64,000 bases of DNA from an uncultured Candidatus Binatia bacterium (GTDB lineage Bacteria > Desulfobacterota > Binatia > UBA9968 > JAJDTQ01). The stretch covers positions 2,304,001 to 2,368,000 of the forward strand of contig OZ243916.1 of the NCBI GenBank assembly GCA_965213675.1. The letters run 5' to 3'. The notes beneath the pieces are model-generated. The model saw nothing but the letters and a program-made list of their open reading frames with translations. It was not told the origin of the DNA and searched no databases. Shown one piece after another: positions 1 through 20,344 of this stretch; position 1 is the stretch's first letter; every line of letters begins with the position of its first letter. A program made the translations under genes and the position numbers.

Positions 1-1581
1 ACCATCCCGCCGCTGGTGTGCTCGCTGGTGGCGGTGGTATGGCAGCTCGGCACGGTCACCGCCCTGGGTTTCGGCATCGATCCCATGTCCATCCTGGTGC
101 CGTTCCTGGTATTCGCGGTGGGGGTCAGCCACGGCGTGCAGATGGTGAGCGCGGTGCGCGCCGAGGTGGTGGCCGGGGCCGCCGGCCTGGACGCGGCGCG
201 GGCGAGTTTCCGGCGTCTGCTGCTGCCCGGCGCGGTGGCGCTGGCGTCGGACTCCGTGGGTTTCATCAGCATCTCGTTCATCGAGGTGCAGGTCATCCGG
301 GAGACGGCCATCACCGCCAGCCTCGGCATCGTGGCCATCATTCTTACCAACCTGGCGCTGCTGCCGGTGCTGCTCTCATATTTCCGCATGAGCGAAGCCG
401 AGCGGCGGGCCGCGGCCGGGCGCGACAGCGTTCTGCGGCCGCTATGGTCCCGCGTGGCGCGGTTGGCGCACCGGGGTCCCGCGGCCGTGACCGTGGGCCT
501 TGCCGCGGCGCTGGTGACCGTGGGGGCCTTATACGCGGTCCAGGTCCAGGTGGGCGACAGCCACCAGGGCGTGCCCGAACTGCGCGCCGAATCCGTGTAC
601 AACCGTGACATCGCCACCATCACCGAACGCTTCAAGATCGGCGTGGACGTGCTCACGGTGTTCGCGGAGACGGTGCCGGACGGGTGCATCGACTACGACG
701 TGCTTGCTACCCTGGACGCGTTCACCTGGCACGTGCGCAACGTGGAGGGAGTCCAATCCGTGATGAGCCTGGCCAGCGTCGCGCGCAACATCAACGCCGG
801 CTGGAACGAGGGCAACCTCAAGTGGCGCACGCTGCCGCGAAACCGCCACAGCCTGGTGCAGTCGGTTGCGCCGGTACCCACCAGCAGCGGCCTCATCAAC
901 AACGATTGCAGCGTGCTCCCGGTGCGCATCTACACCGTCGATCACAAGGCGGAGACCATCCAGCGCGTGGTCGACGCCACCCGGGAGTTCCAGCGCCCGA
1001 ACACCGTGGAACGCATTCGCTTTCATCTGGCGGGGGGCAACGTCGGCGTGATGGCCGCCACCAACGAAGAAGTGGATGCTTCCCAGTTCCCGATCCTGGG
1101 CTACGTCTTCGCCGGGATCATCCTGCTGTGCCTGCTCTCGTTCCGCTCCGTGGCCGCCACGGTGTGCATCATCGTGCCGCTGGCCGCGGTATCCATCCTG
1201 GCCTACGGGCTCATGGCGATCCTGGAGATCGGGCTCAAGATCTCGACCCTGCCGGTGGTCGCCCTGGGGGTGGGAATCGGCGTGGACTACGCCATCTACA
1301 TCTATGGCCGGCTGCGCGCCCATCTGGAAGAAGGGCTGGACTTCGCCGACGCCTACGAACGCACCCTCAACATCACCGGCGCCGGCGTGGTGCTCACCGG
1401 ACTCACCCTGGCCGCGGGCGTGGCCACCTGGATCGTCGCCCCGCTCAAGTTCCAGGCCGACATGGGCACGGTGCTGATGTTCATGTTCCTGGTCAACATG
1501 ATCGCCGCCGTGGTGCTGCTGCCGGCCCTCGGCGCGTGGCTCGTGCGCCCGAGGCCGGCGGAACGCGTAAAAGGGACGTAG
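1..1581 (+). CDS. MMPL/RND family transporter (5' truncated by window edge)
   Basis: Reading frame open from the window start; two hydrophobic TM bundles around a periplasmic domain; motifs AVGVSHGVQ and GVGIGVDYAIY typical of MMPL proteins. Confidence 0.85.
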   Translation, partial: TIPPLVCSLVAVVWQLGTVTALGFGIDPMSILVPFLVFAVGVSHGVQMVSAVRAEVVAGAAGLDAARASFRRLLLPGAVALASDSVGFISISFIEVQVIRETAITASLGIVAIILTNLALLPVLLSYFRMSEAERRAAAGRDSVLRPLWSRVARLAHRGPAAVTVGLAAALVTVGALYAVQVQVGDSHQGVPELRAESVYNRDIATITERFKIGVDVLTVFAETVPDGCIDYDVLATLDAFTWHVRNVEGVQSVMSLASVARNINAGWNEGNLKWRTLPRNRHSLVQSVAPVPTSSGLINNDCSVLPVRIYTVDHKAETIQRVVDATREFQRPNTVERIRFHLAGGNVGVMAATNEEVDASQFPILGYVFAGIILLCLLSFRSVAATVCIIVPLAAVSILAYGLMAILEIGLKISTLPVVALGVGIGVDYAIYIYGRLRAHLEEGLDFADAYERTLNITGAGVVLTGLTLAAGVATWIVAPLKFQADMGTVLMFMFLVNMIAAVVLLPALGAWLVRPRPAERVKGT

Positions 1582-1604
1582 GGGCGCGTCTGAAACCCTC
1601 CCAT
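1578..1604 (+). repeat. Degenerate GTAG-type REP palindrome
   Basis: GTAGGGGCGCGTCTGAAACCCTCCC overlaps the MMPL stop; related degenerate copies at ~10050-10107 and 27410-27435. Confidence 0.45.
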
Positions 1605-1772
1605 CATTCAACCGCGGCCATTCAAGCCTACGCCGCACCGGCGAAAACCCAACCTCTCATAAAAGAGTGGCGGCCATGGGCATGAAGCCATACAATAGAA
1701 GCCGGATCTCATGGAGGTAGAAGGAAAAGATTTCCGGAAGCCGCAGGAGTCGGCATCGAAAGCGCACAGAAC

Positions 1773-4091
1773 ATGACTTCCAAGTCGAAGCCCGGTTTTT
1801 TCGATCTGATAGTGGATCGATACTTCTGGACGATAGCCGTCACTTTCCTGTTGACCGCCGTGCTCGCCACGGGAGTACAGCACCTCATTACCGTCAATGT
1901 AGGCATCCGAAATCACTTCGATGACAATGACCCGCATTTGATCAACCTCGACGATTTCGAAACGACCTACGCAGTGTCGGACAGCGTCCTCGTCATTGTC
2001 GCCCCGCCGAACGACACCGTTTTCACGCGCAAAGCACTCGTTGCGATTGAGCAACTGACGGACGTGTTGTGGCAAACGCCTTATTCTGTCCGTGTCGATT
2101 CGATAACCAATTACCTGCACACCGAGGGAATCGAGGACACCCTGATTGTCGAGCAACTGGTCGACGACGCGGCTTCGCTGGGCGACGTCAACCTCGCCCG
2201 CATTCGAGACATCGCCCTCACCGCACAGGAAACGGCCGGCCGTTTCGTCTCTCGCGACGGTCGTGTGGCCGGCCTGATCGTGAGCCTGGCCATCCCCGCT
2301 GAACAACGCAAACAGCGCAAAATCGAAGTGGTCGACGGTCTCTACGGTCTGGTCAACAAACAGCGCGCGGCCAACCCCGACATCGAATATCACATCTATG
2401 GTGAACTGTTGTTGAATCGGGCGGTTCGCGACGCGCTGACAGACGATATGTCCTTTTTGGCGCCAATCGCGCTTGCGATGATGGTTCTGGTCGCGATGCT
2501 GTTGTTGCGTTCGGTTTGGAGCGTTTGCGGGATTTTTGCGATGATAATTGCGGTGATGGCATCGAGTTTCGGCCTAACCGGCTGGTTCGGTTTGAAATTC
2601 TATGCGGAAAGCGGCGCCGCGGTATTCGTTCTGATGGCGATTGCCATCGCACACTCCGTCCACCTGATCGAAGGAGTGACCGTTGGAATGCTTCGTGGAA
2701 TGGAACGTAAAGCCGCCGTTGTTCACTCCCTGACAATCAATGCCCATCCGATCTTCCTTACTTCGCTCACCACCATGATCGGTTTTCTGAGCCTGAATTT
2801 TTCGGAAATGCCGCCGTTTCGAGTGATGGGTAATATCGTTGCGTTCGGCGCCATGTGCGCCTTCGTCTACGCGGTCACGCTTTTGCCCGCATTGTTGGCG
2901 ATGATGCCCATCCGGGCACCCGCCGAAACGAGACACGGAACGACACCTTTCAAGCGTTTGGGAGATTTCGTCGTTTCCAAAAGCATTTTCTTGCTATGGA
3001 CTTTCGTCATCCTCGTTCTGGTGAGCGCATATGGCATCTCGCGAATCAGCCTGAATGACAACAACAACGCCAAGCTCCTTAACGAAAGCTACGACTTGCG
3101 CCGATCGGGTGATTTCATCAACGAGCACTTTGCCGGGCTGGATTCCTTTGAGTATTCACTGAATTCCGGGCGCGCGGGGGGAATCACCGACATTGAGTAC
3201 CTGCGTCGGGTGGATTCGTTCGCCAACTGGCTTCGCGAACAGCCTGAAGTTTCTCACGTCACCTCGATTGCCGATATCATGAAGCGGATTAATCAAAATC
3301 TTCATAATGACGCAAAAGGCACCTATGCCCTCCCGGCAAACTCCGACCTTGCGGCGCAATACCTGCTTTTATACCAGTTCTCCCTACCGGTCGGCCGCGA
3401 CATAGACAATCTCATCAACTTTGAGCGGTCGGCGACCCGGATGACCGTCGTGATCGGGGGAATGTCGGTCAAAAAGCAAATCGAGCTGGACAATCGCGCT
3501 TCTGCCTGGCTGGGACACAATGCTCCGCAAATGCGGACCGGAGCGACCGGCGTCGCCATTGTGGGCGCTTACTCGGTGATGAGAAACATCGTGAACATGT
3601 TACTCGGCACCTTCATCGCGATCTCGACCGTGTCGCTGCTGTTGATCCTTGCATTCAAAAGCCTTCGCTTGGGGCTTCTAAGCCTGATACCCAATTTCGT
3701 GCCGGCAATCATATCCTTGGGGGCATGGGGTTACGCTGTGGGAACCGTGAATATTGCGGCGTCAATCGTTACCGCGATAGCGTTTGCCATCGTTGTGGAC
3801 GATACCATCCATCTCCTGTCGAAATACCTGACTTCACGCGCAGAGGGCAAATCACCTTCCGAAGCCATCCCGCCGACTTTCGAGCTCGTGGGACAACCGC
3901 TGCTGAGCACCACGTTGATTTTTGCGGTGGCATTTTTCGTCTTTGGCGCATCGGGGCTAGTGACCAATCAGACGCTCGGTTTGCTGGTCGGAATGACGGT
4001 CATCATTGCGCTCGTTGCGGACCTCTTTTTGTTACCGCCGCTTCTGCTGGCCCTCGACAGGACGAAACACCGGCAAACGCTCGACGACTAG
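1773..4091 (+). CDS. MMPL/RND family lipid transporter (candidate sterol/triterpenoid transporter)
   Basis: 772 aa, duplicated MMPL architecture, AIVVDDTIH motif in second half, LAAQYLLLY periplasmic motif; codon usage more A/T-rich than the flanking genes. Confidence 0.85.
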   Translation: MTSKSKPGFFDLIVDRYFWTIAVTFLLTAVLATGVQHLITVNVGIRNHFDDNDPHLINLDDFETTYAVSDSVLVIVAPPNDTVFTRKALVAIEQLTDVLWQTPYSVRVDSITNYLHTEGIEDTLIVEQLVDDAASLGDVNLARIRDIALTAQETAGRFVSRDGRVAGLIVSLAIPAEQRKQRKIEVVDGLYGLVNKQRAANPDIEYHIYGELLLNRAVRDALTDDMSFLAPIALAMMVLVAMLLLRSVWSVCGIFAMIIAVMASSFGLTGWFGLKFYAESGAAVFVLMAIAIAHSVHLIEGVTVGMLRGMERKAAVVHSLTINAHPIFLTSLTTMIGFLSLNFSEMPPFRVMGNIVAFGAMCAFVYAVTLLPALLAMMPIRAPAETRHGTTPFKRLGDFVVSKSIFLLWTFVILVLVSAYGISRISLNDNNNAKLLNESYDLRRSGDFINEHFAGLDSFEYSLNSGRAGGITDIEYLRRVDSFANWLREQPEVSHVTSIADIMKRINQNLHNDAKGTYALPANSDLAAQYLLLYQFSLPVGRDIDNLINFERSATRMTVVIGGMSVKKQIELDNRASAWLGHNAPQMRTGATGVAIVGAYSVMRNIVNMLLGTFIAISTVSLLLILAFKSLRLGLLSLIPNFVPAIISLGAWGYAVGTVNIAASIVTAIAFAIVVDDTIHLLSKYLTSRAEGKSPSEAIPPTFELVGQPLLSTTLIFAVAFFVFGASGLVTNQTLGLLVGMTVIIALVADLFLLPPLLLALDRTKHRQTLDD

Positions 4092-4259
4092 CTTTCGGGA
4101 CGTCTCGTGATGGCCGAAACCATGAGGTCCTGGACGCGCCGATGACCCCGGTTCCGCCGGCGTCTCGCGAGCAAACTTCCGCCCGTCCGCGTCCACGTTC
4201 GCGCCATGCCGTCATTCTCGACAGCGTCCGTATCGCCGGTCACGAGCGCAGGAGCACCT

Positions 4260-6290
4260 TCAGGCCGAAATGTCGCGCAACTGGCTTGCGATGCGCAGCC
4301 GAAGTTTCTTCGTAACCGACAATGCCGGGAATGGGTTGATTTTCAGTTTATAGTCTTTGGGCGGCGGCGCAAAGTCGAAATGGTGCGCTATAACCAACAC
4401 GGTAACCGTCGCCTGCAAATGCATCCATGCCCATCCCGCGCACGAGTGGGTATCCAAGCCGTTCGGAGCGTATCCAGGACCTTGATGCTCATTGCGCGGC
4501 GGCAGGTAACGGTCTATATCGAAGTCGTAGGGGTCTGCGAAGCAATCACTCATGTAGTGGGCCGCGGTTTGCACAATGTACAACCGTTCCCGGAGCGGCA
4601 GTGAATAATTTTCCACCACGCAAGAATTTGCGACATCGCGAAGATGTGTGCTGATAATCGGATACATTCGCAAGCATTCCATGAGAAAGCGCCTGGTAAC
4701 GTCATATTTGTCCGGCGTAAACGCTTCTTTATTCGGATCGCCGCCATCGAACAGCGCGTTTGCCTCTTCACGAATTCTCGCCGCAATATCCGGGTGCCTG
4801 GCCAACTCATAAAGTGCGAAACCCAACATGTCCCCTAGATAAATACTTTGAAACACGGGCGTTACCGCCATCATGAACATCAGGTTTTGCTCCGGGATAA
4901 ACTGCGGATCGCTGGTGTGCAAAGAAATCAGCTCGTCCGCCAGCTCCCGGGCAGCGCCTGCACGGTGAATGGGAATGTGGTTCTGTTCGATGCGCCGCAG
5001 GAGTTTCTCGTAAAGCTGGAAGCGATACTTCATGCCGGGAGTGCGCGTCAGGAATTTCGGGAGAAAATCCGCAACGTAGCAAAGGATTGCTTTTTCATTC
5101 CATTTGACCAGGTCTTCAAATACATCTTGCGAATTCGTACTAATAAGAACCTGAGACATTTGAAAATTGGTCATCGACCGGGTATCGCGCTGTACTTCCA
5201 GTGTCGAGCCGGCCTGCCACTTTTGAGTTATCATGAATTGGCGGCTCAGTCGGAACATGTCATCCAGCCGCTCGTGGAAACTGGCCTTCGAGTAAATTTT
5301 CCCCATCAGCTTGCGCAATCGAAAATGATCAGCTCCGTCCGTCGACGGCAGTAAATTGTTTGCGCCGCAAACCGTCTCCATCTTGCGAAAAAAATTGCCG
5401 GAAGTCAAAAACCTTCGGGAATTTCGACGCATCCAATGATTGATGTCAGGTCCTGCCAAAAATGTTCGCGGTCTTTGAAACGGCGGACAGATTTGAAAGA
5501 CGGGACCATATCGGGCGGCCAGATTCCCGAACAGGGCTGGCAGGTTGCCGTCCCACAAATGCCGATTTGCGAACAAGCTCCTTAGGGGAATCTTCGGAAT
5601 TGGTTTTGTGAGGGGTGAGTGTTGCAATACAGGCGTAATGGCGACCTGCTTGACAGCAGTGGAGATGACCCGGTTGATCAGTTCCGTTTTACAAACCTGG
5701 TCAATTCGCTTTTTCTCGTCCTCGCCCAGCTCGAAAATGAATTTGATGATATCGCACGCGCTCAAAAGACCGATTATCAGGGAATCCCTCGGGTCTGGAA
5801 TGATATCCGTGAAAATTACCTTCGCGATTCGCGATTTGATGTACTTTCCAACGGTCTCGCTTTGAGGATATCGTTCCAATTCCGCATGCCAGGCGCAGTG
5901 GTTCGTTGTATAAAACTCACCATCATGGCGCGTCAGAATTTCGGAGTTGATCAACTGCTTCAATGTAGCATCGATGATGTCTTCCGAATGAACTGCAAGC
6001 CGCTCAATCCAGTATCGCGGTTCTTCCAGATTGGGATGAGATGCGAACTCTTCCAGACATAAATCCAGTGCCGGGTCGCCTGTTTTGGTCGAGTCCAGGA
6101 GAAAGAGCGATTCTTCGTCGGTATCAATGCGTGATTTCAGGGAGAGATCGGCCAGAACTGCGCCGATGGTGGCGCAGTTCAACGTCCAGCCCTCCACTTG
6201 GTGGAAATAACCGTTCTGCTCGTTGAGAATCGTCAGGATGAATTCTTGCGGGATATTCAACGATTGCTTCGTTATCATGTTACACGCCAT
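4260..6290 (-). CDS. GPP34/GOLPH3(Vps74)-like domain fused to cytochrome P450
   Basis: N-terminal ~220 aa has the GPP34 pattern (EFILTILN..G..GAVLADLSLKSRID..TGDPALD..WIERL); C-terminal P450 has ExxR (ECLR), DPYDFDIDRY and heme Cys in THSCAG; start ATG at 6290 or 6278 after GAGGA. Confidence 0.82.
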   Translation of the reverse strand: MACNMITKQSLNIPQEFILTILNEQNGYFHQVEGWTLNCATIGAVLADLSLKSRIDTDEESLFLLDSTKTGDPALDLCLEEFASHPNLEEPRYWIERLAVHSEDIIDATLKQLINSEILTRHDGEFYTTNHCAWHAELERYPQSETVGKYIKSRIAKVIFTDIIPDPRDSLIIGLLSACDIIKFIFELGEDEKKRIDQVCKTELINRVISTAVKQVAITPVLQHSPLTKPIPKIPLRSLFANRHLWDGNLPALFGNLAARYGPVFQICPPFQRPRTFLAGPDINHWMRRNSRRFLTSGNFFRKMETVCGANNLLPSTDGADHFRLRKLMGKIYSKASFHERLDDMFRLSRQFMITQKWQAGSTLEVQRDTRSMTNFQMSQVLISTNSQDVFEDLVKWNEKAILCYVADFLPKFLTRTPGMKYRFQLYEKLLRRIEQNHIPIHRAGAARELADELISLHTSDPQFIPEQNLMFMMAVTPVFQSIYLGDMLGFALYELARHPDIAARIREEANALFDGGDPNKEAFTPDKYDVTRRFLMECLRMYPIISTHLRDVANSCVVENYSLPLRERLYIVQTAAHYMSDCFADPYDFDIDRYLPPRNEHQGPGYAPNGLDTHSCAGWAWMHLQATVTVLVIAHHFDFAPPPKDYKLKINPFPALSVTKKLRLRIASQLRDISA

Positions 6291-6358
6291 TCCTCGTGAT
6301 TTGATTCTTTCTCGTGATGCCGATGCCTGCGGCTTCCGGTCCCCTTTTTTCCATCCCT

Positions 6359-9300
6359 CTACGAGATCTTCTTTGCCGTTCCGGTTCCGCCGTCCGGCGT
6401 CATGTCCACAGCCGCCACTCTTCCAGCCATGACGCGTTGACTTCTCGCCGGTAATATCATGTTCATTCGTTGGTTCCGGCGACGCTGCTCGTAGAGGGCA
6501 AGCGCGTGCAGGGGGAAATACTGGCGGTAGAGCACGTAATCCAGGAGGGCCGTTCGAAAAAAAACGCCGGCCATGTCCTGCTTGGGCCAAGTCCCGTCTG
6601 CTTCCTGCGTATCAAGCAGGAAGCCGGCACCCCGGGAAATCGCGGCCCAGTCTGTTGTGCCCGCCTCGAGGAGCGCTATCAGCGCCCACGCGGTCTGTAT
6701 GACCTGGCTTTCCTGATGCGGGACGTAGCGACCGGTCAGGCAGCCGCTGTGGTGTTCGCCCCATCCCCCGTCTGGCTGCTGGCGCTCCAGCAGCCAGCGG
6801 CAAGACGCGCGCAGCGCCGGATCGCTTGGACCGGCCCGGTCCGAAACAAGGCCCCTGATGCCGAAAAGGGTGCCGTAGATGTACTGTACCCCCCATACGC
6901 CGCGCCAACTGCCGTCAGCCATCTGGTGCCGTCGCAACCACAAGACGCCCCGGGCGATGGAGTCGGCAACCACCGACCTGTCGCCAATTTCGGGAAATCG
7001 ATCCCGGCAGACAGCCAGCGCCGCGATACAAGACGCGGTACACTCGACAAAAGAACGCTCGGTCATCGATTCGCCGAACATCTCTGCAGGATTCAAACGC
7101 TCCAGATCAATTGCCGAGCGCCTGGCCTCATAACTGCCGAAGCCCCCGTCGGGGTTCTGGCTTCGCAACATAAAGCCAATCGCTTCGCTGAGGACGGACG
7201 GGTCCGTGTCGTCTCCGTGGGCGGCGACGAGTCCGAGCACCGCCTCCGCCGTGCAGTCACTCACCGGCCAGCCATGCCACCCGCCGGCGAAGCACCAGCC
7301 GCCTTTGGGGTCAGCGCGGTAGGCTTCACGAAACCGCTCAAAGCTGGTCTTGATCTGTTCGCCGAGCAGAAAATCGGCGCCGCGCCGGAGCGCATCCCGA
7401 ACACGGTCCGTCTCAGGCATGGTAGCCAGAGCCTGCAGCGCGAACCCGGTATCCCACGAAGCGCTTCTTGCTCCGCTGACCCGCAAGCCGTCGTCTTCGT
7501 CTTCCCATATCCAGGAACCCATTTTCGATAGCGCCCGTCGGCAATCGGTATCGTCCGGATCGTGCAGCCACAGCGCCAGAATGTTGAGAATGCCGCTGAC
7601 CGGAGAGATGCTCGTATGGCCGGTGGTCTGCAGTTCCCATCTGATCTGCCCGAGAATTGTATCCATGCACCGTGTGCGCAGGTGTTTGCTGTGGAACCGC
7701 TCGACCAGCCGTGCAAATCCATATCCGAGCCTGAGCCAGACGGACGGCCTTGCAAAAAGATCGGCGTCCCGAAGCCGGTTCCTGGCGGCGAGAAAGTCGG
7801 CCCTGGCAAAACCTTGCGGATAAAGCTCTTCCCGCAACGCGGCGATAACTGGTGTGACGGGCGCCTGGAACCGGCGGGCATAAATCGACGCCATCGCCAT
7901 ATAGATGAGCCGTGTATGGCAGTACCAGTTGGAAGGATGCAGCGGTATCTTCCGCGGCAGGCTCCACAATTCCGGCAGAACAGCGTTCACGCCGTTCCAA
8001 TCATAAAGATTAAGGAGCGCCAGCCATAATTTTCCCCAGCTCGGAATGCCGAGAATCCCCTCGGCCTGAATGAACCGCCGGGCCGGCGCGATCAGGGGGT
8101 CATCCGGCAATACACCGAGCAGCCGCGCCGCGACATAAACGAGGGCGGTGACGAACAGATGGGGCGACGAATGCTCGTGCAGGCCCCATGAACCGTCCTG
8201 GAGACGAGTCCTCTCAAACGAGCGCAGCACCCGGCGCCGCTTTCCCGGATCGAGCGGCTGGCCGATGATGTGGTGGAGCAGTACGTATTGCGCCGTGAGC
8301 ATGGGACACCAGACCATCTCGCCTTCCCAGTCGCCGTCCTCTCTCTGCAGTTGCACGAGGCATTGGGCGGCGCTGTCCAGCGCCGGGCCGGCATCGGGCG
8401 AATCGACCGCTCCCGCGCGGGCGGGCCGCTCCGATTCGGTTTTCGAAGGGATGGAATAGGGGAATGCCCGTCGTAGGTGCTCTCGCGTATTCGCGCTTTC
8501 CTCCCTTCCTTCCCTGGTCGCCGCCCTCAACTGGCGGATGCCGAGCAGCAACCACCAAAGGCGAGCAGCCAACGCGCGAAAGTTCACCAACATCCGACGC
8601 CATGAAAGCCTGCGGATGGAGAAGGTTATCTCCCGGCTCATTGCCCGCGCGACAGTTTCGCAAAAGGAGAAAACCGTCATTGACATGGACAAGTCTTCGC
8701 AGGCAAGTATCCGCATGGTCCGGTCCCGATACCCCGAATTCGCTCGCCAGCCTTGGTAAACGGCCTTTCTGAGCATAGCCGATTCGGTGCGGTAATCGCC
8801 CAACACCTCATAAAGCCCCATGGCAAGGAACTCGGGAACACGGGTCGCCTGGAACCGCTCTGCGGTGAATTGCTGGAAGTCCTCGCTTTCGGAGAGCGCC
8901 AGCGCATCGCCGAAGCCGAGAGTCATGCCGACTGCCGTCATGGGATGATAGTGTCCGGCGGCATCGCCGATAAGCACCCGGCGCGGGTTCCCGTACGTGA
9001 CACGCGGTCTCAATTGGTTGGGGGCGGCATGGAATCGCCTGACGTCCAGCGCTTCGACGAAGGCCGGCCCGAGATATCCCGGAAGCAGCTTGCCATAGGA
9101 TTCAGACAAGAAACTTATCCAGTCCTTGGAATGCCAGCAGTCCAATGGGACATCCACGTTGACCCGGACGGAGCCGTTCGCAAGTCCGTAAATGAAAATT
9201 GGACCCGGCCCGCCCAGAACCACATGTCCGTATCCTTCAAACGGCAGGTCGGCGTCGTGTAACGTCACCCCGAGCATCCGCGAACAGAGCATCGGGTCCA

Positions 9301-9799
9301 TGGAATACCCCAAGGATCTGCGCACGATCGAAGCGCGGCCGTCGGCGCCGATAATTCGGTCGACATTTATGGCGCAGTCCGAGCGGTCTTTCGAGAAGGT
9401 GATCCGTTCGTCTTCAACGACATTGACCCGCGCGTGGGAAATGAAATCGACATTGGCCTCGTTCTCTATGACCTCGCGGAGGCTTGAAACGAGCAGCGCG
9501 TGGTCGCATACCAGACCCCGTGAACCGTCTGGATAAGGAAGCAGGATCGGGTCGGAGTCGTCGTCGGGCAGCACCACGAAGCCGACGCCCGACTTGCTGC
9601 CGGAAAGCGTGTCGACATCAATCCCGATGTCACGCAACAAATTCACTGCCGGCGGATGCAACCATTCGCCTGCAAGGCGTTTAGACGCTTTCGGATTCGC
9701 TTCGAGCAGGGCCACCTTAACGCCCTTGCGCGCAAGGACAATTGCGCACACGCTTCCCACCGGTCCCGCGCCGACAATGGCGGTATCATACTTCGGCAC
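6359..9799 (-). CDS. Fused squalene monooxygenase (epoxidase) - oxidosqualene cyclase
   Basis: N-terminal FAD domain has GAGPVG, RLAGEWLHP, GADG and GDAAGHYHPMTAVGMT (squalene-epoxidase-like); C-terminal domain has QW repeats (QREDGDW, QMADGSW, QQPDGGW, QEADGTW), IPSWGKLWL, WYCHTR and catalytic VSDCTAE; single uninterrupted frame; GTG start at 9799 after GAGGAG. Confidence 0.92.
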   Translation of the reverse strand: MPKYDTAIVGAGPVGSVCAIVLARKGVKVALLEANPKASKRLAGEWLHPPAVNLLRDIGIDVDTLSGSKSGVGFVVLPDDDSDPILLPYPDGSRGLVCDHALLVSSLREVIENEANVDFISHARVNVVEDERITFSKDRSDCAINVDRIIGADGRASIVRRSLGYSMDPMLCSRMLGVTLHDADLPFEGYGHVVLGGPGPIFIYGLANGSVRVNVDVPLDCWHSKDWISFLSESYGKLLPGYLGPAFVEALDVRRFHAAPNQLRPRVTYGNPRRVLIGDAAGHYHPMTAVGMTLGFGDALALSESEDFQQFTAERFQATRVPEFLAMGLYEVLGDYRTESAMLRKAVYQGWRANSGYRDRTMRILACEDLSMSMTVFSFCETVARAMSREITFSIRRLSWRRMLVNFRALAARLWWLLLGIRQLRAATREGREESANTREHLRRAFPYSIPSKTESERPARAGAVDSPDAGPALDSAAQCLVQLQREDGDWEGEMVWCPMLTAQYVLLHHIIGQPLDPGKRRRVLRSFERTRLQDGSWGLHEHSSPHLFVTALVYVAARLLGVLPDDPLIAPARRFIQAEGILGIPSWGKLWLALLNLYDWNGVNAVLPELWSLPRKIPLHPSNWYCHTRLIYMAMASIYARRFQAPVTPVIAALREELYPQGFARADFLAARNRLRDADLFARPSVWLRLGYGFARLVERFHSKHLRTRCMDTILGQIRWELQTTGHTSISPVSGILNILALWLHDPDDTDCRRALSKMGSWIWEDEDDGLRVSGARSASWDTGFALQALATMPETDRVRDALRRGADFLLGEQIKTSFERFREAYRADPKGGWCFAGGWHGWPVSDCTAEAVLGLVAAHGDDTDPSVLSEAIGFMLRSQNPDGGFGSYEARRSAIDLERLNPAEMFGESMTERSFVECTASCIAALAVCRDRFPEIGDRSVVADSIARGVLWLRRHQMADGSWRGVWGVQYIYGTLFGIRGLVSDRAGPSDPALRASCRWLLERQQPDGGWGEHHSGCLTGRYVPHQESQVIQTAWALIALLEAGTTDWAAISRGAGFLLDTQEADGTWPKQDMAGVFFRTALLDYVLYRQYFPLHALALYEQRRRNQRMNMILPARSQRVMAGRVAAVDMTPDGGTGTAKKIS

Positions 9800-10103
9800 C
9801 GAGTCAGCCCTCCTCAAAGGGCGCTGGGTATAGCGCGGCGGCGGTTGTGGAGGGCAGGTCTTCCAGGTTCGCCACTGGGGTAGGCATGACGAGCGCCTCC
9901 TGCACCACGTTCGTGGCGAGGCCGGTGAAGGTCAGAGTCGGGTCACTTCCCGCACCGTGTTTGCGAGCGAATCATCTTGTCTTTCAAGGGACGAGTTGTA
10001 TTTCTTTGTTTTCAGCCAATTGCGGGCGGCAGGACAAACCTTACACGGCCAAGTTTCAAACCCGCCAGTGTCCAATCGCGCCGAGACGTGTCTCCAACCC
10101 CCC

Positions 10104-10742
10104 CTACGCCGCGAACGACGCCTGTGTTTCCTTCTCGAAGGCCAGTAGCTTCTGGACGCTGGGGCGGGTCTGCATGCGCGCGAAATGCGCGCGCACGTTG
10201 GGATAGGGCTCCAGGTCGATGTCGAACTGGGTGCTGCGGCGTACGCACCAGAAGAAATGCGCGTCCGGCGCGGTGAAGTGATCGAAGAAGTACTCGCGCC
10301 CGTCCAGCATGGACTCGGCGATTCCGTTGGTCTCGGCCAGGAACTCGGCGGCGATGCGGGACACGCTCTCCACGCTGTCCGCCGCGTCGCACACCTTGGC
10401 CGGCGAGTTGATGCGGCTCAGATAAGGGTGGATGCCCGATGCGCACCACGACATGATCGAGATCGCCCTGACCTCATCCCAAGGATCCGACGGCAGCAGC
10501 CTGGCCTCCGGGAAGCGCCGCGCGATCCACACCTGAATGGCCACGTTCTCCGTCAGGGTTTTCCCGTCCACCATCAGAAGCGGCACCTTGTGCTTGGGAT
10601 TGAGCTTCATGTACTCCTCGGTGCGGTTCTGCCCCGCCCGGAAGTTCAACGCCTTGACTTCGAAGTCCGCCCCCGCCTCGGTCAACGTGATGTAGGGCGC
10701 CATCGCGCAGGTGATGGGCGCGTAATACAACTGGATGCTCAT
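10104..10742 (-). CDS. Glutathione S-transferase family protein
   Basis: NPKHKVPLL and LTENVAI motifs, 212 aa, GGAGG RBS. Confidence 0.9.
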   Translation of the reverse strand: MSIQLYYAPITCAMAPYITLTEAGADFEVKALNFRAGQNRTEEYMKLNPKHKVPLLMVDGKTLTENVAIQVWIARRFPEARLLPSDPWDEVRAISIMSWCASGIHPYLSRINSPAKVCDAADSVESVSRIAAEFLAETNGIAESMLDGREYFFDHFTAPDAHFFWCVRRSTQFDIDLEPYPNVRAHFARMQTRPSVQKLLAFEKETQASFAA

Positions 10743-10779
10743 GGGTACCTCCGTGTGGTTGGCGACGAGGGTAAGTGCG

Positions 10780-11040: not shown

Positions 11041-11205
11041 CTGGTGTCGTGTCCCACGTAAATCTTGACAAGGATGCACAGGATTTTTCGTTGCCGGCAA
11101 GGCGCGATGACGAGCCATGGCTGTTACCAAGCGAGGAAGAGCAACGCAGCCGACGACGAAAAAGACCCGCAGATTTGCCAACATTTACGCGGGACACGAC
11201 ACTAG
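11041..11205 (+). mobile_element. MITE/ERIC-like repeat, copy 1 (165 bp)
   Basis: Terminal inverted repeats CTGGTGTCGTGTCCCACGTAAAT / ATTTACGCGGGACACGACACTAG; core GTTGCCGGCAAGGCGCGATGACGAGC..GCGAGGAAG..ACGCAGCCGAC shared with other copies. Confidence 0.85.
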
Positions 11206-11700: not shown

Positions 11701-11785
11701 GGTTCGGCCCGTGGACGCGCGCGCCGTCCACGCGTTTGATGCGACGGGGCCCCTTGGCTATGTTGCCGTGTGGAGGTGGCCAACC

Positions 11786-13363
11786 ATGAACGGGACTTTC
11801 AGGGAGTACATCGAACTGCTGCGGGAGCACGACGAGCTGCTTGACATTCGCAAGCCGGTGGATCTGCGGGACGTCGCAGCGCTCACCGCGCAGAGCGACC
11901 CGGCGCTGCTGTTTCACAATCCCGTGGGCTACTCCATCCCGGTGGCCTGCGGGCTGCTGCAGAAGCGGGAACGGCTGGGCCTCGCCATGGACGCTCCCTA
12001 CCCGGAGATCCACAAGCGCTTCCAGTTCGCCATGTCCAACTCCATCGACCCGGTGATGGTGGACGACGCTCCAGCCAAGGAATGCATCCGGCAAGGCGAC
12101 GACGTGGACCTGTTCAAGCTGCCGGTGCCGATCTTCTCCACCCTGGACGGCGCGCCCATGATCACGGCCGCGGTCGTCATCGCCCAAGACCCCGAGTACG
12201 GCATGAACGCCGGCGTCTACCGGCTCATGCTCAAGGAGCGGAACGTCACCGGCATCGACATCGTGACACCCAACAACCTGCACCGCTTCGTGCAGCGGGC
12301 GCTGGCCGAGAACCGGCCGCTGCCCATCTCCATGTCCATCGGGGTGCATCCGAGGGAGCTCATGGGGGCGCTCTTCAAGGCATCCCTGGGTACCAACGAA
12401 CTGGGTTTCGCTGGCGGCCTCGGCGGGCGGCCGGTGGAGCTGACCCCCGGCGTGGCTACACCGGTTCCGTTCATCGCGGGCTCGGAGATCGTCCTGGAAG
12501 GCGAGATCCCGCCCGAGGGCTGGATTCATCCCGAAGGCCCCTTCGGCGAGTTCTCGCGCCTGGTGGGAGGCACCCACCGCAACCCCAACGTCCACGTGAA
12601 GTCGGTGCTGCACCGGCGCGATCCGATCTATTACGCCTTGCACATGCCATGGGAGAACCTGTGGATGAGCGCGCCCATCTACGAGGCCGCGGCCTGGCGC
12701 GTGCTGGCAGAGACGGGCGTACAGGTCACCGCCATCAACGTCACGCCCGGCGGCTGCTGCCACTGGCACATCGTGGCGTCCATCAAGAAGAGCCCGGGGG
12801 ACGGCAAGAACGCCATCGCCGCGCTGCTGTCCATCGCCGATATCAAGTACGTGGTGGTCACCGACGACGACATCGACATCTTCGACCCCGTGGAAGTGGA
12901 GTGGGCCATCGCCACCCGCGTGCAGGCGGACCGGGACACCGTGATCCTCTCCAACGCCCGCTCCAAGCCCCTGGACCCATCCATTCCGCCCAGCGCCAAC
13001 GGGGTCCCCACCACCGCCAAGATGGGCATCGACGCCACCATACCCGAGAACGTGCCGCGCTACCGCTACAACCGCATCATCTACCACAACCAGGGCAAGG
13101 CCGTGCTTGACGACTACCTGAGCGAATCCCCGGCCGCGCCGCAGCCGGCGGCGGCGGACGACGACGCCATCCAACGGCTGGCGCAACGAACCCTGGACAT
13201 GCTGCGCGAAAAGCGGCTTACCTTCAGCGAGTTGCTGGACGCCTTCCCGGATCAGGCATTCGCCACGGTCATGGCGCTGGTGGGACGCCTCAACGAAGGC
13301 AGGCAGATCACCCTGGACGAAGAGGGGAAGTACATGCCGGCGGAGGATGCACCAGAGGCCTGA
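11786..13363 (+). CDS. UbiD family (prFMN-dependent) decarboxylase
   Basis: NAGVYRL, EIVLEG, EGPFGE, VTDDDIDI, WAIATR and KMGIDAT motifs; GGAGG RBS before ATG 11786. Confidence 0.92.
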   Translation: MNGTFREYIELLREHDELLDIRKPVDLRDVAALTAQSDPALLFHNPVGYSIPVACGLLQKRERLGLAMDAPYPEIHKRFQFAMSNSIDPVMVDDAPAKECIRQGDDVDLFKLPVPIFSTLDGAPMITAAVVIAQDPEYGMNAGVYRLMLKERNVTGIDIVTPNNLHRFVQRALAENRPLPISMSIGVHPRELMGALFKASLGTNELGFAGGLGGRPVELTPGVATPVPFIAGSEIVLEGEIPPEGWIHPEGPFGEFSRLVGGTHRNPNVHVKSVLHRRDPIYYALHMPWENLWMSAPIYEAAAWRVLAETGVQVTAINVTPGGCCHWHIVASIKKSPGDGKNAIAALLSIADIKYVVVTDDDIDIFDPVEVEWAIATRVQADRDTVILSNARSKPLDPSIPPSANGVPTTAKMGIDATIPENVPRYRYNRIIYHNQGKAVLDDYLSESPAAPQPAAADDDAIQRLAQRTLDMLREKRLTFSELLDAFPDQAFATVMALVGRLNEGRQITLDEEGKYMPAEDAPEA

Positions 13364-16640: not shown

Positions 16641-16806
16641 CTGGTGTCGTGTCCCGTAAATTCCTGCGACAAGTTGCGCAGGATTTTTTTGTTGCCGGCA
16701 AGGCGCGATGACGAGCAGTGGCGGGCACCCCGCGAGGAAGGTCCACGCAGCCGACGGCGAAAAAGATCCGCAGATTATGACACGAATTAACCAGACACCA
16801 CACTAG
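16641..16806 (+). mobile_element. MITE/ERIC-like repeat, copy 2 (chimeric ends) between cofD and cofC
   Basis: Left end CTGGTGTCGTGTCCCGTAAATT, shared core, right end ATTAACCAGACACCACACTAG identical to the copy 4 end. Confidence 0.85.
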
Positions 16807-17785
16807 ACAGCAGTTCCCGTGCCAGCCGCTTCTTGTCTTCCAGGGTGTCCATGCGGATGGACGTGGCAAGCATGTGGACGCCAAGGCGCTCGATGGCGGG
16901 CTGCAATTTCCGGTCTTCGGTATCGACCACCAGCACATCGACAAAATCCCGATAGGCCTCCGCGAGCCCGGTGACGGACGCCTCCACGCCCAGCGTCGCC
17001 ATGAGCTTGTGTGCCGGGCCGCTAAAGGAGCGGCCCTGCACCATGGGACTCACGGCCACCACCTTGCCAGGCGTATCGCGCAGGGCCTGGCGCACGCCGG
17101 GCACCGCCAGAATGGGGCCGATGCTGGTGGCGGGGTTGCTGGGGCAAACCACCACCAGGGTGGCATGGCCGATGGCTTCGAGCATGCCCGGCGCGGGGCG
17201 GCTTTCCTCGATCCCCTGGTAGCGCAGGCTCAGGACCTCCGGCTGCCAGCGCGCCTTGACGAAGTATTCCTGAAAGGAGACCTCCCCGGCCGGCGTGGCC
17301 AGCCGCGTCTCCACCCGCTGGTCGGACATGGGCAGCACGGCGGCGCGCACCCCCAGCGCGCGGCACAGCATGGCGGTGACTTGGGACAACGGCTGACCCT
17401 GGGACAGGAGGCGCGTGCGCGTCAGGTGGGTGGCGATGTCCCGGTCGCCCAGATGGAACCAGGTTTCGTTGCCAAGCCGTTGGAGCTGGTCCAGCACGGT
17501 GAAAGTATCGTCCCGCACGCCCCAGCCCTTGGCCGGGTCGATGAGGCCGGCGAGGGTGTAGACGATAGTATCGACGTCGGGGGATACGTGGAGGCCATGC
17601 ACTAGCGCGTCGTCACCGGTGTTGCACAGCACCACCAGGTCTTCGGCGGCCGCCTCCTCGTGAAAGCCCAGCACGAGCTTGGCCCCACCGGTGCCTCCGG
17701 TAAGAAGCACATGTGTTCCGGCGCTGGGTTTCGTGGACAATTCCGGCGGTCTCTCCCGAGCGTCCCGCTCTTCCTGGTGCGGCAC
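16787..17785 (-). CDS. cofD: 2-phospho-L-lactate transferase
   Basis: GGTGGAKL, NTGDD, SPDVDT, WFHLGDRD, FQEYFV, PSNP.TSIGPIL. Confidence 0.93.
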   Translation of the reverse strand: MPHQEERDARERPPELSTKPSAGTHVLLTGGTGGAKLVLGFHEEAAAEDLVVLCNTGDDALVHGLHVSPDVDTIVYTLAGLIDPAKGWGVRDDTFTVLDQLQRLGNETWFHLGDRDIATHLTRTRLLSQGQPLSQVTAMLCRALGVRAAVLPMSDQRVETRLATPAGEVSFQEYFVKARWQPEVLSLRYQGIEESRPAPGMLEAIGHATLVVVCPSNPATSIGPILAVPGVRQALRDTPGKVVAVSPMVQGRSFSGPAHKLMATLGVEASVTGLAEAYRDFVDVLVVDTEDRKLQPAIERLGVHMLATSIRMDTLEDKKRLARELLSSVVSG

Positions 17786-17848
17786 TCGGCGGCGGCTTCG
17801 AAGCCGGCCGTGCCCGGCGCCACCCCCGCAAGGGACGGCGGGTATCCG

Positions 17849-19093
17849 TTACAGACCCACGACCTTCTGATCCGCTGCGCCGGCGGCGGCCGCGAACTCG
17901 CCCGCCAGGATCTCCGACTCGTCCTCCCAGGCGCGCAGGACCTCATAGCCCGTGGAACGCTCGGCCGGAATGCGGTCGATCTCGCGGATGAGCGAACGGA
18001 ACTCGTGGGGCCGGATCATCTGCCCTTCGGTGGAACCCGCCAGCCGCGAGATGCTTTCCTCCATGAGCGTGCCGCCAAAGTCGTTGGCGCCGGAGCGCAG
18101 GCAGTGTTGCGACATGCGCCGGCCCATCTTCACCCACGACACCTGCACGTTGGGAATGGTGTCGTTGAGCAGCACCCGCGCCAGCGCGTGTACGCGGATG
18201 TCCTCCTCCTCGGTGGGGCCGGGACGCGCCAAGCCCTGCTGAAAGAGCGCGGTGTTCTCGTGTACGAACCCCAGCGGGACGAATTCGGTGAACCCGCCCG
18301 TCTCCTTCTGGATGTCGCGCAGCAGCAGCATGTGGTTCACCCAGTGGCTGCCGTTTTCCCGGTGGCCGTACATCATGGTGGAGGTGGTGAAGATGCCCAC
18401 CTCGTGGGCGGTGCGGATGACCCGGAGCCACTGCTCGGTGCTGACCTTGTTCTTGGACAGCACCATGCGCACCTCGTCGTCGAGGATCTCCGCGGCCGTG
18501 CCCGGCACGCTGTCCAGACCCGCGTCCCTTAGCATGCGCAGGTAATCGGCCAGCTCCATGCCGGTGAGTTCCACCCCGTAGGTGATCTCCATGGGCGAGT
18601 AGGCGTGGATGTGGATGCCGGGAACGCGGGAGCGGATGGCCTGAAGCAGGTCGCGGTAGTAGAAGGGCGTCATGCCCCGGGGCAGGCCGCCCTGCATGCA
18701 GATCTCGGTGGCGCCGCGGTTCCACGCATCCTCGGCCTTGTCCGCCACGTCTTCCAGCGAGTGGTCCCAGCTTCCGGCCTTGTTGGGGCCGGTGTGAAAC
18801 GCGCAGAACTTGCAGCCGACGTAACAGACGTTGGTGAAGTTGATATTGCGGCACACCACGTAAGTGATCTGGTCGCCGACCTTGGCCTGGCGCATGAGAT
18901 CGGCGGTCGCCGCAAGGGCCGCCAGTTCGTCGCCGCTCACCTCTGACAGAACGAGCCCTTCCTCCCGCGTGACCTCGTGGCCCGCCAGGGCGCGCTCCAG
19001 AATCTGCGCGACGCGGCCCTCCACGCGGGGCAACAGCCGGTTCAGACGTCCAACCTCGTCGTCATGGTCGAACATCGCTTCGATGTGGCTCAT
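17849..19093 (-). CDS. cofH: FO synthase subunit 2 (radical SAM)
   Basis: NINFTNVCYVGCKFCAF, PGTAAEIL, TSTMMYGH, FTEFVPL, QVSWVK, GANDFGGTLMEE. Confidence 0.92.
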   Translation of the reverse strand: MSHIEAMFDHDDEVGRLNRLLPRVEGRVAQILERALAGHEVTREEGLVLSEVSGDELAALAATADLMRQAKVGDQITYVVCRNINFTNVCYVGCKFCAFHTGPNKAGSWDHSLEDVADKAEDAWNRGATEICMQGGLPRGMTPFYYRDLLQAIRSRVPGIHIHAYSPMEITYGVELTGMELADYLRMLRDAGLDSVPGTAAEILDDEVRMVLSKNKVSTEQWLRVIRTAHEVGIFTTSTMMYGHRENGSHWVNHMLLLRDIQKETGGFTEFVPLGFVHENTALFQQGLARPGPTEEEDIRVHALARVLLNDTIPNVQVSWVKMGRRMSQHCLRSGANDFGGTLMEESISRLAGSTEGQMIRPHEFRSLIREIDRIPAERSTGYEVLRAWEDESEILAGEFAAAAGAADQKVVGL

Positions 19094-20294
19094 GGTGTCC
19101 TCCGACGGCGCCTGATGTCGTGTCCCACGACACCAGGCCGTCCTCGTCGCAAAGTCTCTCGATGCAGGGGATCAACCCGGGCGCGATGAACCGCTGCCCT
19201 TGCGCGATGTATTCCGGGTAGATGGGAAGGCGGGGCCGCAAACGGAAACCAGCGGCCGCGGTGCGCTCCGCCAGTTCCACAAGCTCGGGCCAGGGCGCCT
19301 CCGGGTTGATGAAGTCGCGAGTGACGGGCGACACCCCGCCCCAGTCGTTGATGCCGGCGTTCAGGTACCACTCGTAACACTCCGGCGTCAGGTTGGGCGG
19401 CGCCTGGATGTTCATGTCGCCCCCCAGAATCAGCCGTGCCAGGGCGATGGTCCTGGCCTCGTCGTCGTAGTCCGCATCAGGCTGATCGTTCATGGGGATC
19501 TCGGGCTTCACGCGGAAGTTCTGCACGATCACTTCCTGGATGTGGCCGTAACGTTCATGCAACTCGCGAATGGCGTACAGCGACGCGATGCGCTCTTCCC
19601 AGGTCTCGCCAATGCCGATGAGGATACCCGTGGTGAACGGGATGCCCAGCCGGCCGGCCTCGGCCAGGGTCCGAAGCCGCGCCGCCGGCTTCTTGTCGGG
19701 AGCGTCGGCATGGGCGCCGCCCGGCTCCATGAGGCGCTCGCTGACGCTCTCCAGCATGAGCCCCATGCTGACGTTTACCCGCCGGAGCCGCTCCAGATCG
19801 GCGCGCGCCATGAGCCCGGGGTTGGCGTGGGGCAGGAGCCCGGTCTCCTCCAGCACCACGCGACACGCTTCGTACAGGTACTCCAGCGTCCGGCGGTAAC
19901 CCGCCTGGCGGAGGAACTCCCGCATCTCCGGGTAGATGGCCTCGGGCTTGTCCCCCAGGCTGAACAGCGCCTCGGTACAGCCCATCCCCTTCGCCCGCCG
20001 CGCCGTTTCCAACACTTCATCCAGGGACAGGGTCCTGGCCCCTGCGTCTTCGGGCGCCTTGCGAAACGTGCAATAGCCGCAGAAATCGCGACACAGGTTG
20101 GTCAGCGGGATGAAGACCTTGGGGGAGAAGGTAATGGTGCGGCCCTTGTGGCGGTCGCGCAACGCGGCAGCCGCTCGGAGCAGCGCCGTGAACTCATCTC
20201 CCTCGACACCGGCAAGCAGGAGGGCGTCGCCCGGCGCCAAGGAACCCCGGTCGAGACATTCCTGCAGCAGTCGTGGGACTTGTCGAGTCGTCAT
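19062..20294 (-). CDS. cofG: FO synthase subunit 1 (radical SAM)
   Basis: FIPLTNLCRDFCGYCTF, LLPHANPG, SMGLMLE, FTTGILIGIGE, QAPPNL, DWGGVSP; start at ATG 20294 (MTTRQ). Confidence 0.92.
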   Translation of the reverse strand: MTTRQVPRLLQECLDRGSLAPGDALLLAGVEGDEFTALLRAAAALRDRHKGRTITFSPKVFIPLTNLCRDFCGYCTFRKAPEDAGARTLSLDEVLETARRAKGMGCTEALFSLGDKPEAIYPEMREFLRQAGYRRTLEYLYEACRVVLEETGLLPHANPGLMARADLERLRRVNVSMGLMLESVSERLMEPGGAHADAPDKKPAARLRTLAEAGRLGIPFTTGILIGIGETWEERIASLYAIRELHERYGHIQEVIVQNFRVKPEIPMNDQPDADYDDEARTIALARLILGGDMNIQAPPNLTPECYEWYLNAGINDWGGVSPVTRDFINPEAPWPELVELAERTAAAGFRLRPRLPIYPEYIAQGQRFIAPGLIPCIERLCDEDGLVSWDTTSGAVGGHHEPHRSDVRP

Positions 20295-20315
20295 TGCCAA
20301 ACGCTCAAAGTGGCT

Positions 20316-20344
20316 TGCATAACGGATAAGGGGGTCCGGGTCAA
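20316..20344 (-). promoter_or_regulatory. Candidate sigma-70 promoter of the cof operon
   Basis: TTGACC-17 nt-TATGCA on the minus strand, 21 nt upstream of the cofG ATG. Confidence 0.45.

Follow-up and report, generated by a model that had tools for sequence, protein, structure and literature searches.

Results

A single reading frame spans both domains

The window analysed here, a stretch of 64,000 nucleotides from an uncultured Candidatus Binatia bacterium (contig OZ243916.1, positions 2,304,001 to 2,368,000 of the forward strand), carries on its reverse strand an uninterrupted open reading frame (ORF) of 1152 codons (6359..9817, −; TTG start at 9817), in which a squalene epoxidase (SE) domain and an oxidosqualene cyclase (OSC) domain are joined; we refer to this gene as SE-OSC. 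We consider it very probable that SE-OSC is a genuine polypeptide that would convert squalene to a lanosterol-type protosterol, and that it was acquired by transfer within an insertion of three genes. The SE domain (8453..9793, −; residues ~9-455) was delimited by Pfam, PDB sequence and Foldseek matches, and the OSC domain (6458..8389, −; residues ~477-1120) by Pfam, TIGR01787 and alignment to human lanosterol synthase (PDB 1w6k). Between them lies a flexible linker of about 20 residues rich in Pro, Ala, Ser and charged residues (8390..8452, −; residues ~456-476). In Pfam searches, FAD_binding_3 matched residues 10-309 (75.3 bits), SE (PF08491) residues 156-357 (78.6 bits against a cut-off of 20.1), SQHop_cyclase_N residues 481-774 (177.5 bits) and SQHop_cyclase_C residues 785-1110 (187.8 bits), which bears out the initial annotation of a flavin monooxygenase followed by a two-barrel cyclase. 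The DCTAE motif with the catalytic Asp854 (residues 854-858, aligned to 1w6k) lies exactly where that annotation placed it, at 7244..7258 (−), and the frame length of about 1146 amino acids that it proposed corresponds to an alternative in-frame GTG start at 9799. This is also the length of the closest listed database homologue (P0001), and the alignments of homologues begin at residue 4-10. At the other end, a non-conserved, disordered tail (6362..6457, −; residues 1121-1152; pLDDT 30-37) extends beyond the end of the homologues and overlaps a leader-like repeat that lies upstream of the next gene.

To learn how general the joined frame is, one genome per prokaryote species was scanned; 298 stretches matched, of which 281 encode an SE-OSC relative, and all locus-level counts below refer to the best 80 of these 281 unless another set is named. 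Both halves were covered in all 80 loci, at 62-94% identity. On translation, 70 of the 80 showed one uninterrupted frame from the SE start to the OSC end, and in nine of the other ten the sole stop was the natural stop codon, overrun by the alignment, so that 79 of the 80 are open. The only locus with an internal stop (L056, JAJEEP010000073.1) has a TAG at residue ~642, inside the cyclase, and represents either a pseudogene or an error. Similarly, when proteins of comparable length were searched, 1141 matches were obtained, and the best 120 clusters listed were all 1044-1184 amino acids long, combined an SE with cyclase domains and were 66-94% identical to the query.

Joining of two adjacent genes by an assembly or base-calling mistake is a general risk in metagenome-assembled genomes (MAGs), and the present bin has a contamination of 8%; for this gene, however, we regard such an artefact as exceedingly improbable. 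The linker of the window gene holds neither a stop nor a frameshift. When Logan contigs of four public runs (three studies) were aligned to window positions 6200-9900, no insertion or deletion was listed over SE-OSC, two contig pieces (X3, 8302-8590; X5, 8301-9860) spanned the linker with 0 gaps, bridging the interval 8380-8560 singled out for checking in the initial annotation, and the translated substitutions were missense or synonymous. Moreover, the linker is flanked by near-invariant residues (R419, W422, A479 and L480) in an alignment of 38 fused sequences, which takes in distant members of 35-47% identity. Since 79 of the 80 loci, from many assemblies, have one frame and independent contigs cross the linker without indels, the single-frame SE-OSC is genuine and an assembly artefact was set aside.

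From the 38-row alignment, AlphaFold2 gave a model with a mean pLDDT of 84.5 and a pTM of 0.80. Only residues 1-5, 287-289 and 460-470, together with the tail 1121-1152, were of low confidence; thus the only stretch between the domains with pLDDT below 50 is residues 460-470, in line with the short linker noted initially. No strongly hydrophobic, transmembrane-like segment of 19 residues was found in SE-OSC (maximum Kyte-Doolittle mean 1.7). The separate SE and OSC relatives are monotopic enzymes of the membrane surface, and the sequence of SE-OSC is consistent with the same placement.

The N-terminal half most closely resembles squalene epoxidases

The squalene epoxidase family is defined by GxGxxG and GD motifs. 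In SE-OSC the FAD Rossmann fold carries GAGPVG at residues 16-21 and the GD motif at 284-285, and G16, G18, G21, G284 and D285 are invariant in the 38 fused sequences. Among PDB sequences, the best match of residues 1-467 was human SQLE (6c6n, E 1.7e-28), and the next solved family, the PqsL-type monooxygenases, followed at E 1.7e-9. The same order was obtained from the model by Foldseek, in which human SQLE was the best flavoprotein match (TM(target) 0.80, 439 columns, E 1.8e-18, 24% identity), with p-hydroxybenzoate hydroxylase (E 2.1e-15) and PqsL ranking behind it. The secondary structure of the model further places three C-terminal helices in the SE half, at 378-403, 406-436 and 442-451.

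A related monooxygenase that differs in substrate or regiochemistry, rather than a squalene 2,3-epoxidase, would fit the modest 24% identity to human SQLE in the fold alignment, the NCBIfam result, in which generic UbiH-type models below their cut-offs were the sole matches, and one residue of the active site: the equivalent of the active-site residue Tyr195 of human SQLE is Phe80, which is invariant in the fused family. We nevertheless judge this explanation improbable. The Pfam SE score lies far above its cut-off (78.6 vs 20.1 bits), the E-value of SQLE is 19 orders of magnitude below that of the next solved family, and the fold match takes in the C-terminal helices of SQLE (439 of 450 residues). 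In addition, the SE half is conserved throughout the fused family, and the cyclase to which it is joined requires an epoxide, while no second SE was found in the genome. The N-terminal half thus groups with squalene epoxidases and not with other flavin monooxygenases, as had been proposed, and a squalene epoxidase activity is inferred for it.

The C-terminal half retains the catalytic residues of oxidosqualene cyclases

The cyclase half exceeded the cut-off of the squalene/oxidosqualene cyclase model TIGR01787 (507.4 vs 322.7 bits) and was far closer to human lanosterol synthase (1w6k, E 1.8e-135) than to squalene-hopene cyclase (SHC; 8e-53) among PDB sequences. Human OSC 1w6k was also the top Foldseek match (TM(target) 0.83, rmsd 2.4 Å, 652 columns). 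The human residues D455, C456, C533, H232 and Y503, which comprise the catalytic Asp, its two Cys partners (C456 and C533) and a His and a Tyr, are all kept, as D854, C855, C926, H634 and Y896, respectively, and at least 90% of the 38 fused sequences share these equivalents. Around the motif, D854, C855, T856, E858 and V852 are likewise conserved in at least 90%, and A857 and H848 are invariant. The polypeptide is thus under evident constraint, and we predict OSC activity for this half.

With respect to the product, V852, two residues upstream of the Asp of DCTAE, aligns to V453 of the human enzyme. Wei et al. 2016 (PMC4919349) describe Val at position 453 as leading to lanosterol and Ile as leading to cycloartenol, with position 453 alone being predictive in the bacteria tested. 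Because the equivalent of human 453 is Val, the product of SE-OSC is most likely a lanosterol-type protosterol, and the other two positions of the triad leave some doubt. Only one triad position, V852, carries the lanosterol-type residue: the equivalent of human 449 is H848, which is of the cycloartenol type, and that of 381 is A783, which fits neither type, so that the lanosterol-type T381 and C/Q449 are both missing. Together with the OSC-specific model TIGR03463, which was by far the best-scoring NCBIfam model and yet stayed under its cut-off (733.8 vs 851 bits), and with a bacterial OSC, cited by PMC9531527 and PMC10070321, that makes arborane-type triterpenols, these residues could point to cycloartenol, parkeol, an arborane-type triterpenol or some other non-lanosterol product. 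We hold such a product to be unlikely, though with a real share of the probability: Val or Ile at 453 fully predicted the product in the bacteria of Wei et al., V852 is kept in at least 90% of the family, and the fused MsbE protein was named a lanosterol cyclase on the same residue by Mohanty et al. (PMC7074536).

SE-OSC lies in a bounded insertion

Comparison by blastn with the congeners G003, G013 and G012, which lack the gene at this site, delimited an 8.45-kb insertion with three genes (1603..10052, strand not applicable). In G003 and G013, from which the gene is absent, the matches to window positions 1-1602 and 10053-10753 are only 29 and ~20 bp apart, compared with 8450 bp here. The left flank (1-1602) is the end of an MMPL gene and the right flank (10053-10753) a glutathione S-transferase gene beside a tRNA-Leu. 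The flanking gene on the left, a second MMPL-family gene (1-1581, +) that is cut by the window edge, belongs to the conserved chromosome and abuts the insertion point (L093). The insertion has a GC content of 0.52-0.61 compared with ~0.65 in the flanks. In G012 the syntenic site is empty, and an 8103-bp segment 96.5% identical in nucleotides to window positions 1758-9860 is found ~433 kb away, between housekeeping genes. No integrase or transposase was found within the cassette or next to its copy in G012, and no direct repeats were found flanking the insertion. A further congener, G001, carries a divergent allele (65% amino acid identity), again followed by a GPP34-P450 gene, and of 24 further species sampled in the genus, two have SE-OSC. 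The initial annotation had suggested that the fusion bears on the transfer of sterol synthesis. Because the insertion is bounded, the cassette sits at another site in G012, presence is patchy (2/24) and GC is lower, acquisition of SE-OSC by horizontal transfer within a three-gene cassette is strongly supported at this locus.

Distribution and history of the fused architecture

By their record titles, the 80 loci come from MAGs, many of them named for sponges or sponge symbionts, and cover Alphaproteobacteria, Gammaproteobacteria, Nitrospirales, Candidatus Binatia and Thermodesulfobacteriota as well as Bryobacterales, Chloroflexota/Dehalococcoidia, Acidimicrobiaceae and Rhodothermales. Sponge-metagenome runs also contain parts of SE-OSC, one of them covering 29 of 30 bins at a likeness of at least 90%. 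By its sequence, SE-OSC is a member of the fused squalene monooxygenase (SMO)/OSC family of sponge-associated bacteria, the MsbE type, and its architecture is not new. The initial annotation had held that the two enzymes are separate genes in eukaryotes and in the well-studied sterol-making bacteria; this is correct for eukaryotes and the classic model bacteria, but the fused form had already been published (PMC7074536, PMC10070321) and is widespread in sponge symbionts.

A search with the cyclase domain among proteins too short for the fusion returned many stand-alone OSCs of ~644-660 amino acids, 55-78% identical. A FastTree of 192 OSC domains (87 fused, 96 stand-alone, 6 with a partial SE and 3 SHC outgroups) required at least 22 changes of state between the fused and stand-alone labels, in a quick tree with the root not secured. 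Many single stand-alone rows that are nearly identical to fused rows are probably truncated gene calls, and a clade of 52 stand-alone OSCs with support 100 is genuine. The window OSC groups with alleles of alphaproteobacterial MAGs. For the SE half, 1.84 billion representative proteins were searched, with 229 matches at E ≤ 1e-30, and a tree was built from 131 of the 150 listed, whose domain match exceeded 300 query residues. These 131 rows comprised 83 stand-alone SEs, 12 SE-OSC fusions and 33 proteins in which an SE, a middle region and a squalene/phytoene synthase follow one another, and the window SE fell into a starred 31-row clade with 11 SE-OSC (window included), 18 stand-alone and 2 other rows. 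From these quick trees with an unsecured root, we concluded that both fusion and fission have taken place more than once in the family.

The third architecture, of ~1080-1200 amino acids with an N-terminal SE and a C-terminal squalene/phytoene synthase, is commoner than SE-OSC among these rows (33 vs 12). Its members, all outside the window, include P0251, P0263, P0285, P0247, P0268 and P0309, and in some of them the middle region shows a weak partial match resembling SQHop_cyclase_C. Another protein outside the window, P0233 (1090 amino acids), has cyclase domains, with the OSC starting from residue 431, and a match to the AcrB/RND family (PF00873); it is apparently an OSC joined to a transporter fragment.

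These distributions bear on why the two domains are joined. Channelling of 2,3-oxidosqualene between them, as raised in the initial annotation, is plausible and would agree with the confidence of the model over both domains. At least as likely, the fusion serves equal stoichiometry and co-transfer, because closely related stand-alone cyclases exist. Stated as a full alternative, the fusion would ease co-expression and co-transfer as a "selfish" two-step module, with oxidosqualene diffusing in the membrane and no channelling at all, and we give this somewhat less than an even chance. Relatives of the gene, 62-94% identical, occur in many phyla, the cassette is at different chromosomal sites in congeners, similar stand-alone OSCs occur in the same clade, including the well-supported clade of 52 rows, and the SE domain is also joined to other partners, as in the fusions with squalene/phytoene synthase, which points to a general tendency to fuse. 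On the other hand, a pTM of 0.80 over 1152 residues and the short linker suggest a defined, not floppy, arrangement of the two domains.

Neighbouring genes and the sterol pathway of this genome

The other two genes of the insertion encode a GPP34-cytochrome P450 fusion and a transporter. The GPP34-P450 gene (4260..6278, −; Pfam GPP34 and p450) starts ~80 bp downstream of SE-OSC and encodes 672 amino acids from the Met of MITKQ, with an alternative ATG at 6290. Convergent with it on the opposite strand is the gene of an RND/MMPL-family transporter with a sterol-sensing domain (1773..4091, +; Pfam MMPL 107 bits, Sterol-sensing 27.5 bits), whose matches among PDB sequences were weak, to MmpL4/5 and HpnN (HpnN at E 1e-4). 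A leader-like element of ~100 nt is present in two copies of ~75% identity that form an inverted repeat (I1/I2), one upstream of the RND gene (1663..1757, +) and the other upstream of GPP34-P450 (6316..6422, −), where it overlaps the SE-OSC 3′ end. Both positions carry the element solely in the closest relatives (L001, L002 and G012), and no Rfam family matched it; it may serve the two genes as a common promoter, operator or 5′ leader.

In the usual neighbourhood of the fused gene (e.g. L027), genes for an SdmB-like dehydrogenase, an SdmA-like Rieske oxygenase, ERG24 and a CYP51-type P450 lie directly upstream, and an RND transporter and a sterol methyltransferase (SMT) downstream. All of SdmB, SdmA, ERG24 and CYP51 are present upstream in 63 of the 80 loci, and no copy of the four was found within the window's first 22 kb. 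In 20 of the 80 loci a GPP34-P450 gene, in every case a single frame, is located no more than ~8 kb from SE-OSC, and seven of these loci have no copy of the four canonical genes in their flanks (L001, L002, L005, L006, L019, L035 and L038). Of six other genomes with the reduced arrangement, three lack both ERG24 and CYP51 and one carries the two at a distant position; the remaining two have an ERG24-family gene only, and one of these two, the genome of L001, was searched for ERG24 alone.

The window genome is 4.53 Mb, 97.7% complete and 8% contaminated. In genome-wide searches, SE-OSC was single-copy, with no second SE or OSC; no squalene-hopene cyclase, no SMT orthologue and no member of the ERG4/ERG24 family were found, the last search having been validated on two other genomes, and the best match to CYP51 was 26% identical, leaving no CYP51 orthologue. 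Two other P450s of the genome were considered as CYP51 candidates and rejected, their best solved relatives being CYP184/CYP170-like and their identity to the cluster CYP51 23-26%. An HpnC-HpnD-HpnE tandem lies elsewhere in the genome, all three above NCBIfam cut-offs, and squalene can therefore be made; the fused enzyme is the sole squalene consumer that is recognisable from sequence. Since CYP51, ERG24 and SMT were not found in the genome, nor SdmA and SdmB within the window's first 22 kb, the pathway in this genome is probably short.

GPP34-P450 is itself linked to sterol genes. Its homologues of ~672 amino acids form more than 120 clusters. When 79 metagenome loci (L097-L175) were fetched starting from GPP34-P450 itself, a full-length SMT orthologue, 58-98% identical, was found at most 400 bp away in 23, or in 27 when partial matches are included; at least one recognisable sterol gene was located within 10 kb in 34 of the 79, and SE-OSC in four. 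CYP51s were the best solved sequence relatives of the P450 half, though weakly (E 5.7e-14), and Foldseek did not separate CYP51, BM3 and CYP184; the GPP34 domain had no match among PDB sequences at E ≤ 0.01. The linkage suggests a role for GPP34-P450 in sterol metabolism.

Outside the insertion, a dispersed repeat of ~165 nt is found at 11041-11205 and 16641-16806; the genomes of five congeners each hold dozens of copies, ~78-90% identical, and it looks like a miniature inverted-repeat transposable element (MITE) or a REP-type element. Also near the island are a UbiD-family decarboxylase gene (11711-13363, +) and, at 16787-20624 (−), genes with CofD, CofH/MqnC-type and other radical-SAM domains, which possibly serve coenzyme F420 synthesis.

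Discussion

A putative pathway for the three-gene cassette

From the gene content, we infer the following route. Squalene would be supplied by HpnC, HpnD and HpnE; the N-terminal FAD domain of SE-OSC would epoxidise it with O2 to 2,3-oxidosqualene, and the cyclase domain would protonate the epoxide via Asp854 and cyclise it to a protosterol, most likely lanosterol. Fusion would ensure equal amounts, co-localisation at the membrane and co-inheritance of the two consecutive steps, and a direct hand-over of oxidosqualene from one domain to the other is plausible. GPP34-P450 is a likely sterol-modifying oxidase that would act on the cyclase product, and the RND protein with its sterol-sensing domain a likely sterol exporter, by analogy with BstA.

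Apart from Phe80, the mixed triad and the TIGR03463 score considered above, several points weigh against this reading. A literature search of main texts returned no enzymatic assay of any fused SE-OSC, and no RNA run holding SE-OSC was among the runs listed, although this is no evidence either way on expression. Stand-alone OSCs of 55-78% identity are interleaved with fused ones in the tree, and fusion is therefore not needed for function. Finally, in a bin that is 97.7% complete and 8% contaminated, genes that were not found are not thereby absent.

A bolder proposal is that the 8.1-kb cassette is a self-contained mobile module to make, oxidise and export a protosterol without CYP51, ERG24 or SdmAB, with GPP34-P450 as an enzyme of the sterol pathway. 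The tight adjacency of GPP34-P450 to sterol methyltransferase genes in unrelated metagenome contigs is in keeping with the latter part, and the proposal as a whole is a tentative one that we ourselves regard as doubtful. If it is true, GPP34-P450 possibly couples a sterol or oxysterol signal to host membranes. For the long GPP34 proteins, the linkage to sterol genes gives rise to a hypothesis that can be tested against the published one on phagocytosis.

How bacteria make sterols matters for the interpretation of sterane biomarkers and for the origin of the eukaryotic pathway. The window adds no new kind of enzyme; it provides a clean, bounded case of the first two oxygen-dependent steps of sterol synthesis that travel as one gene in a three-gene cassette, and suggests that some symbionts carry solely this short pathway. 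SE-OSC is also a handy test object, as one ORF should turn squalene into a protosterol. The interest of the locus lies in a family for which the literature search returned no assay, in the cleanly bounded cassette and its reduced pathway, and in the linkage with GPP34-P450.

Comparison with known systems

The separate SE (SQLE/ERG1) and OSC (LSS/ERG7) of eukaryotes, Methylococcus, Gemmata and myxobacteria have the same folds and catalytic residues as the two halves of SE-OSC, but are encoded by two genes in those organisms, whereas here a single gene with a linker of ~20 residues encodes both. Neither Wei et al. 2016 nor Hoshino and Gaucher 2021 (main text) mention a fusion; in their Methods, Brown et al. 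2023 (PMC10070321) refer to "fused SMO/OSC homologs" that were trimmed.

The closest published description is that of the msb locus, from a gammaproteobacterium that lives in symbiosis with the sponge Melophlus sarasinorum (Mohanty et al. 2020, PMC7074536), in which MsbE, a fused epoxidase-cyclase annotated by bioinformatics only, was called a lanosterol cyclase on its Val. MsbE and SE-OSC, likened here by published description, share an N-terminal flavin epoxidase and a C-terminal cyclase in one gene, the Val mark of lanosterol synthesis and a sponge symbiont as the source. The two loci differ in their neighbours: msbC (sterol reductase), msbD (C-14 demethylase), msbA/B (oxidoreductase and Rieske oxygenase) and msbF (methyltransferase) accompany msbE and are absent from the window locus. 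More generally, typical members of the fused family are embedded in the SdmB-SdmA-ERG24-CYP51 arrangement (63/80), and the SE-OSC of the window stands outside it.

In Ircinia sponges, ERG24-CYP51-LSS clusters were reported in 115 of 537 MAGs from 10 phyla, with trees that indicate horizontal transfer (Kelly et al. 2022, PMC9531527). The LSS alignment of that study, with 3765 positions, fits the fused length, and its steroid-cluster passages make no remark on fusion. The Ircinia clusters and the window share the same gene family, occurrence in many phyla and phylogenetic signs of transfer; of the three-gene Ircinia core, however, the window has the fused gene without ERG24 and CYP51, and GPP34-P450 and the RND transporter in their place.

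As for the transporter, BstA of Methylococcus capsulatus is an MMPL-family RND protein that is encoded next to sterol genes and binds 4-methyl sterols (PMC10942540). Unlike the BstA system, no bstB or bstC was recognised in the window cassette, and the likeness to BstA rests on family and gene context: BstA and the window RND protein are both MMPL-family inner-membrane proteins encoded beside sterol synthesis genes. To the hopanoid transporter HpnN, whose structure is solved, the sequence similarity is weak.

GPP34-P450, lastly, has counterparts in the "long" GPP34 form (GPP34_L), reported to be exclusive to sponge symbionts, with 656 of 663 long forms consisting of GPP34 plus P450; its authors propose binding of phosphatidylinositol 4-phosphate (PI4P) and interference with phagocytosis (PMC11706023), and the word "sterol" does not occur in the main text of that paper. 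"Three uncharacterized genes" beside SMT are mentioned by Hoshino and Gaucher 2021, and the linkage of GPP34-P450 to sterol genes, or the fusion, may already be contained in the supplementary information of that paper or in the supplementary figures of Kelly et al. 2022. The GPP34_L proteins of sponge symbionts are identical in architecture and length to the GPP34-P450 of the window; they were published without a sterol context, whereas the window copy shares one cassette with genes for sterol synthesis and transport.

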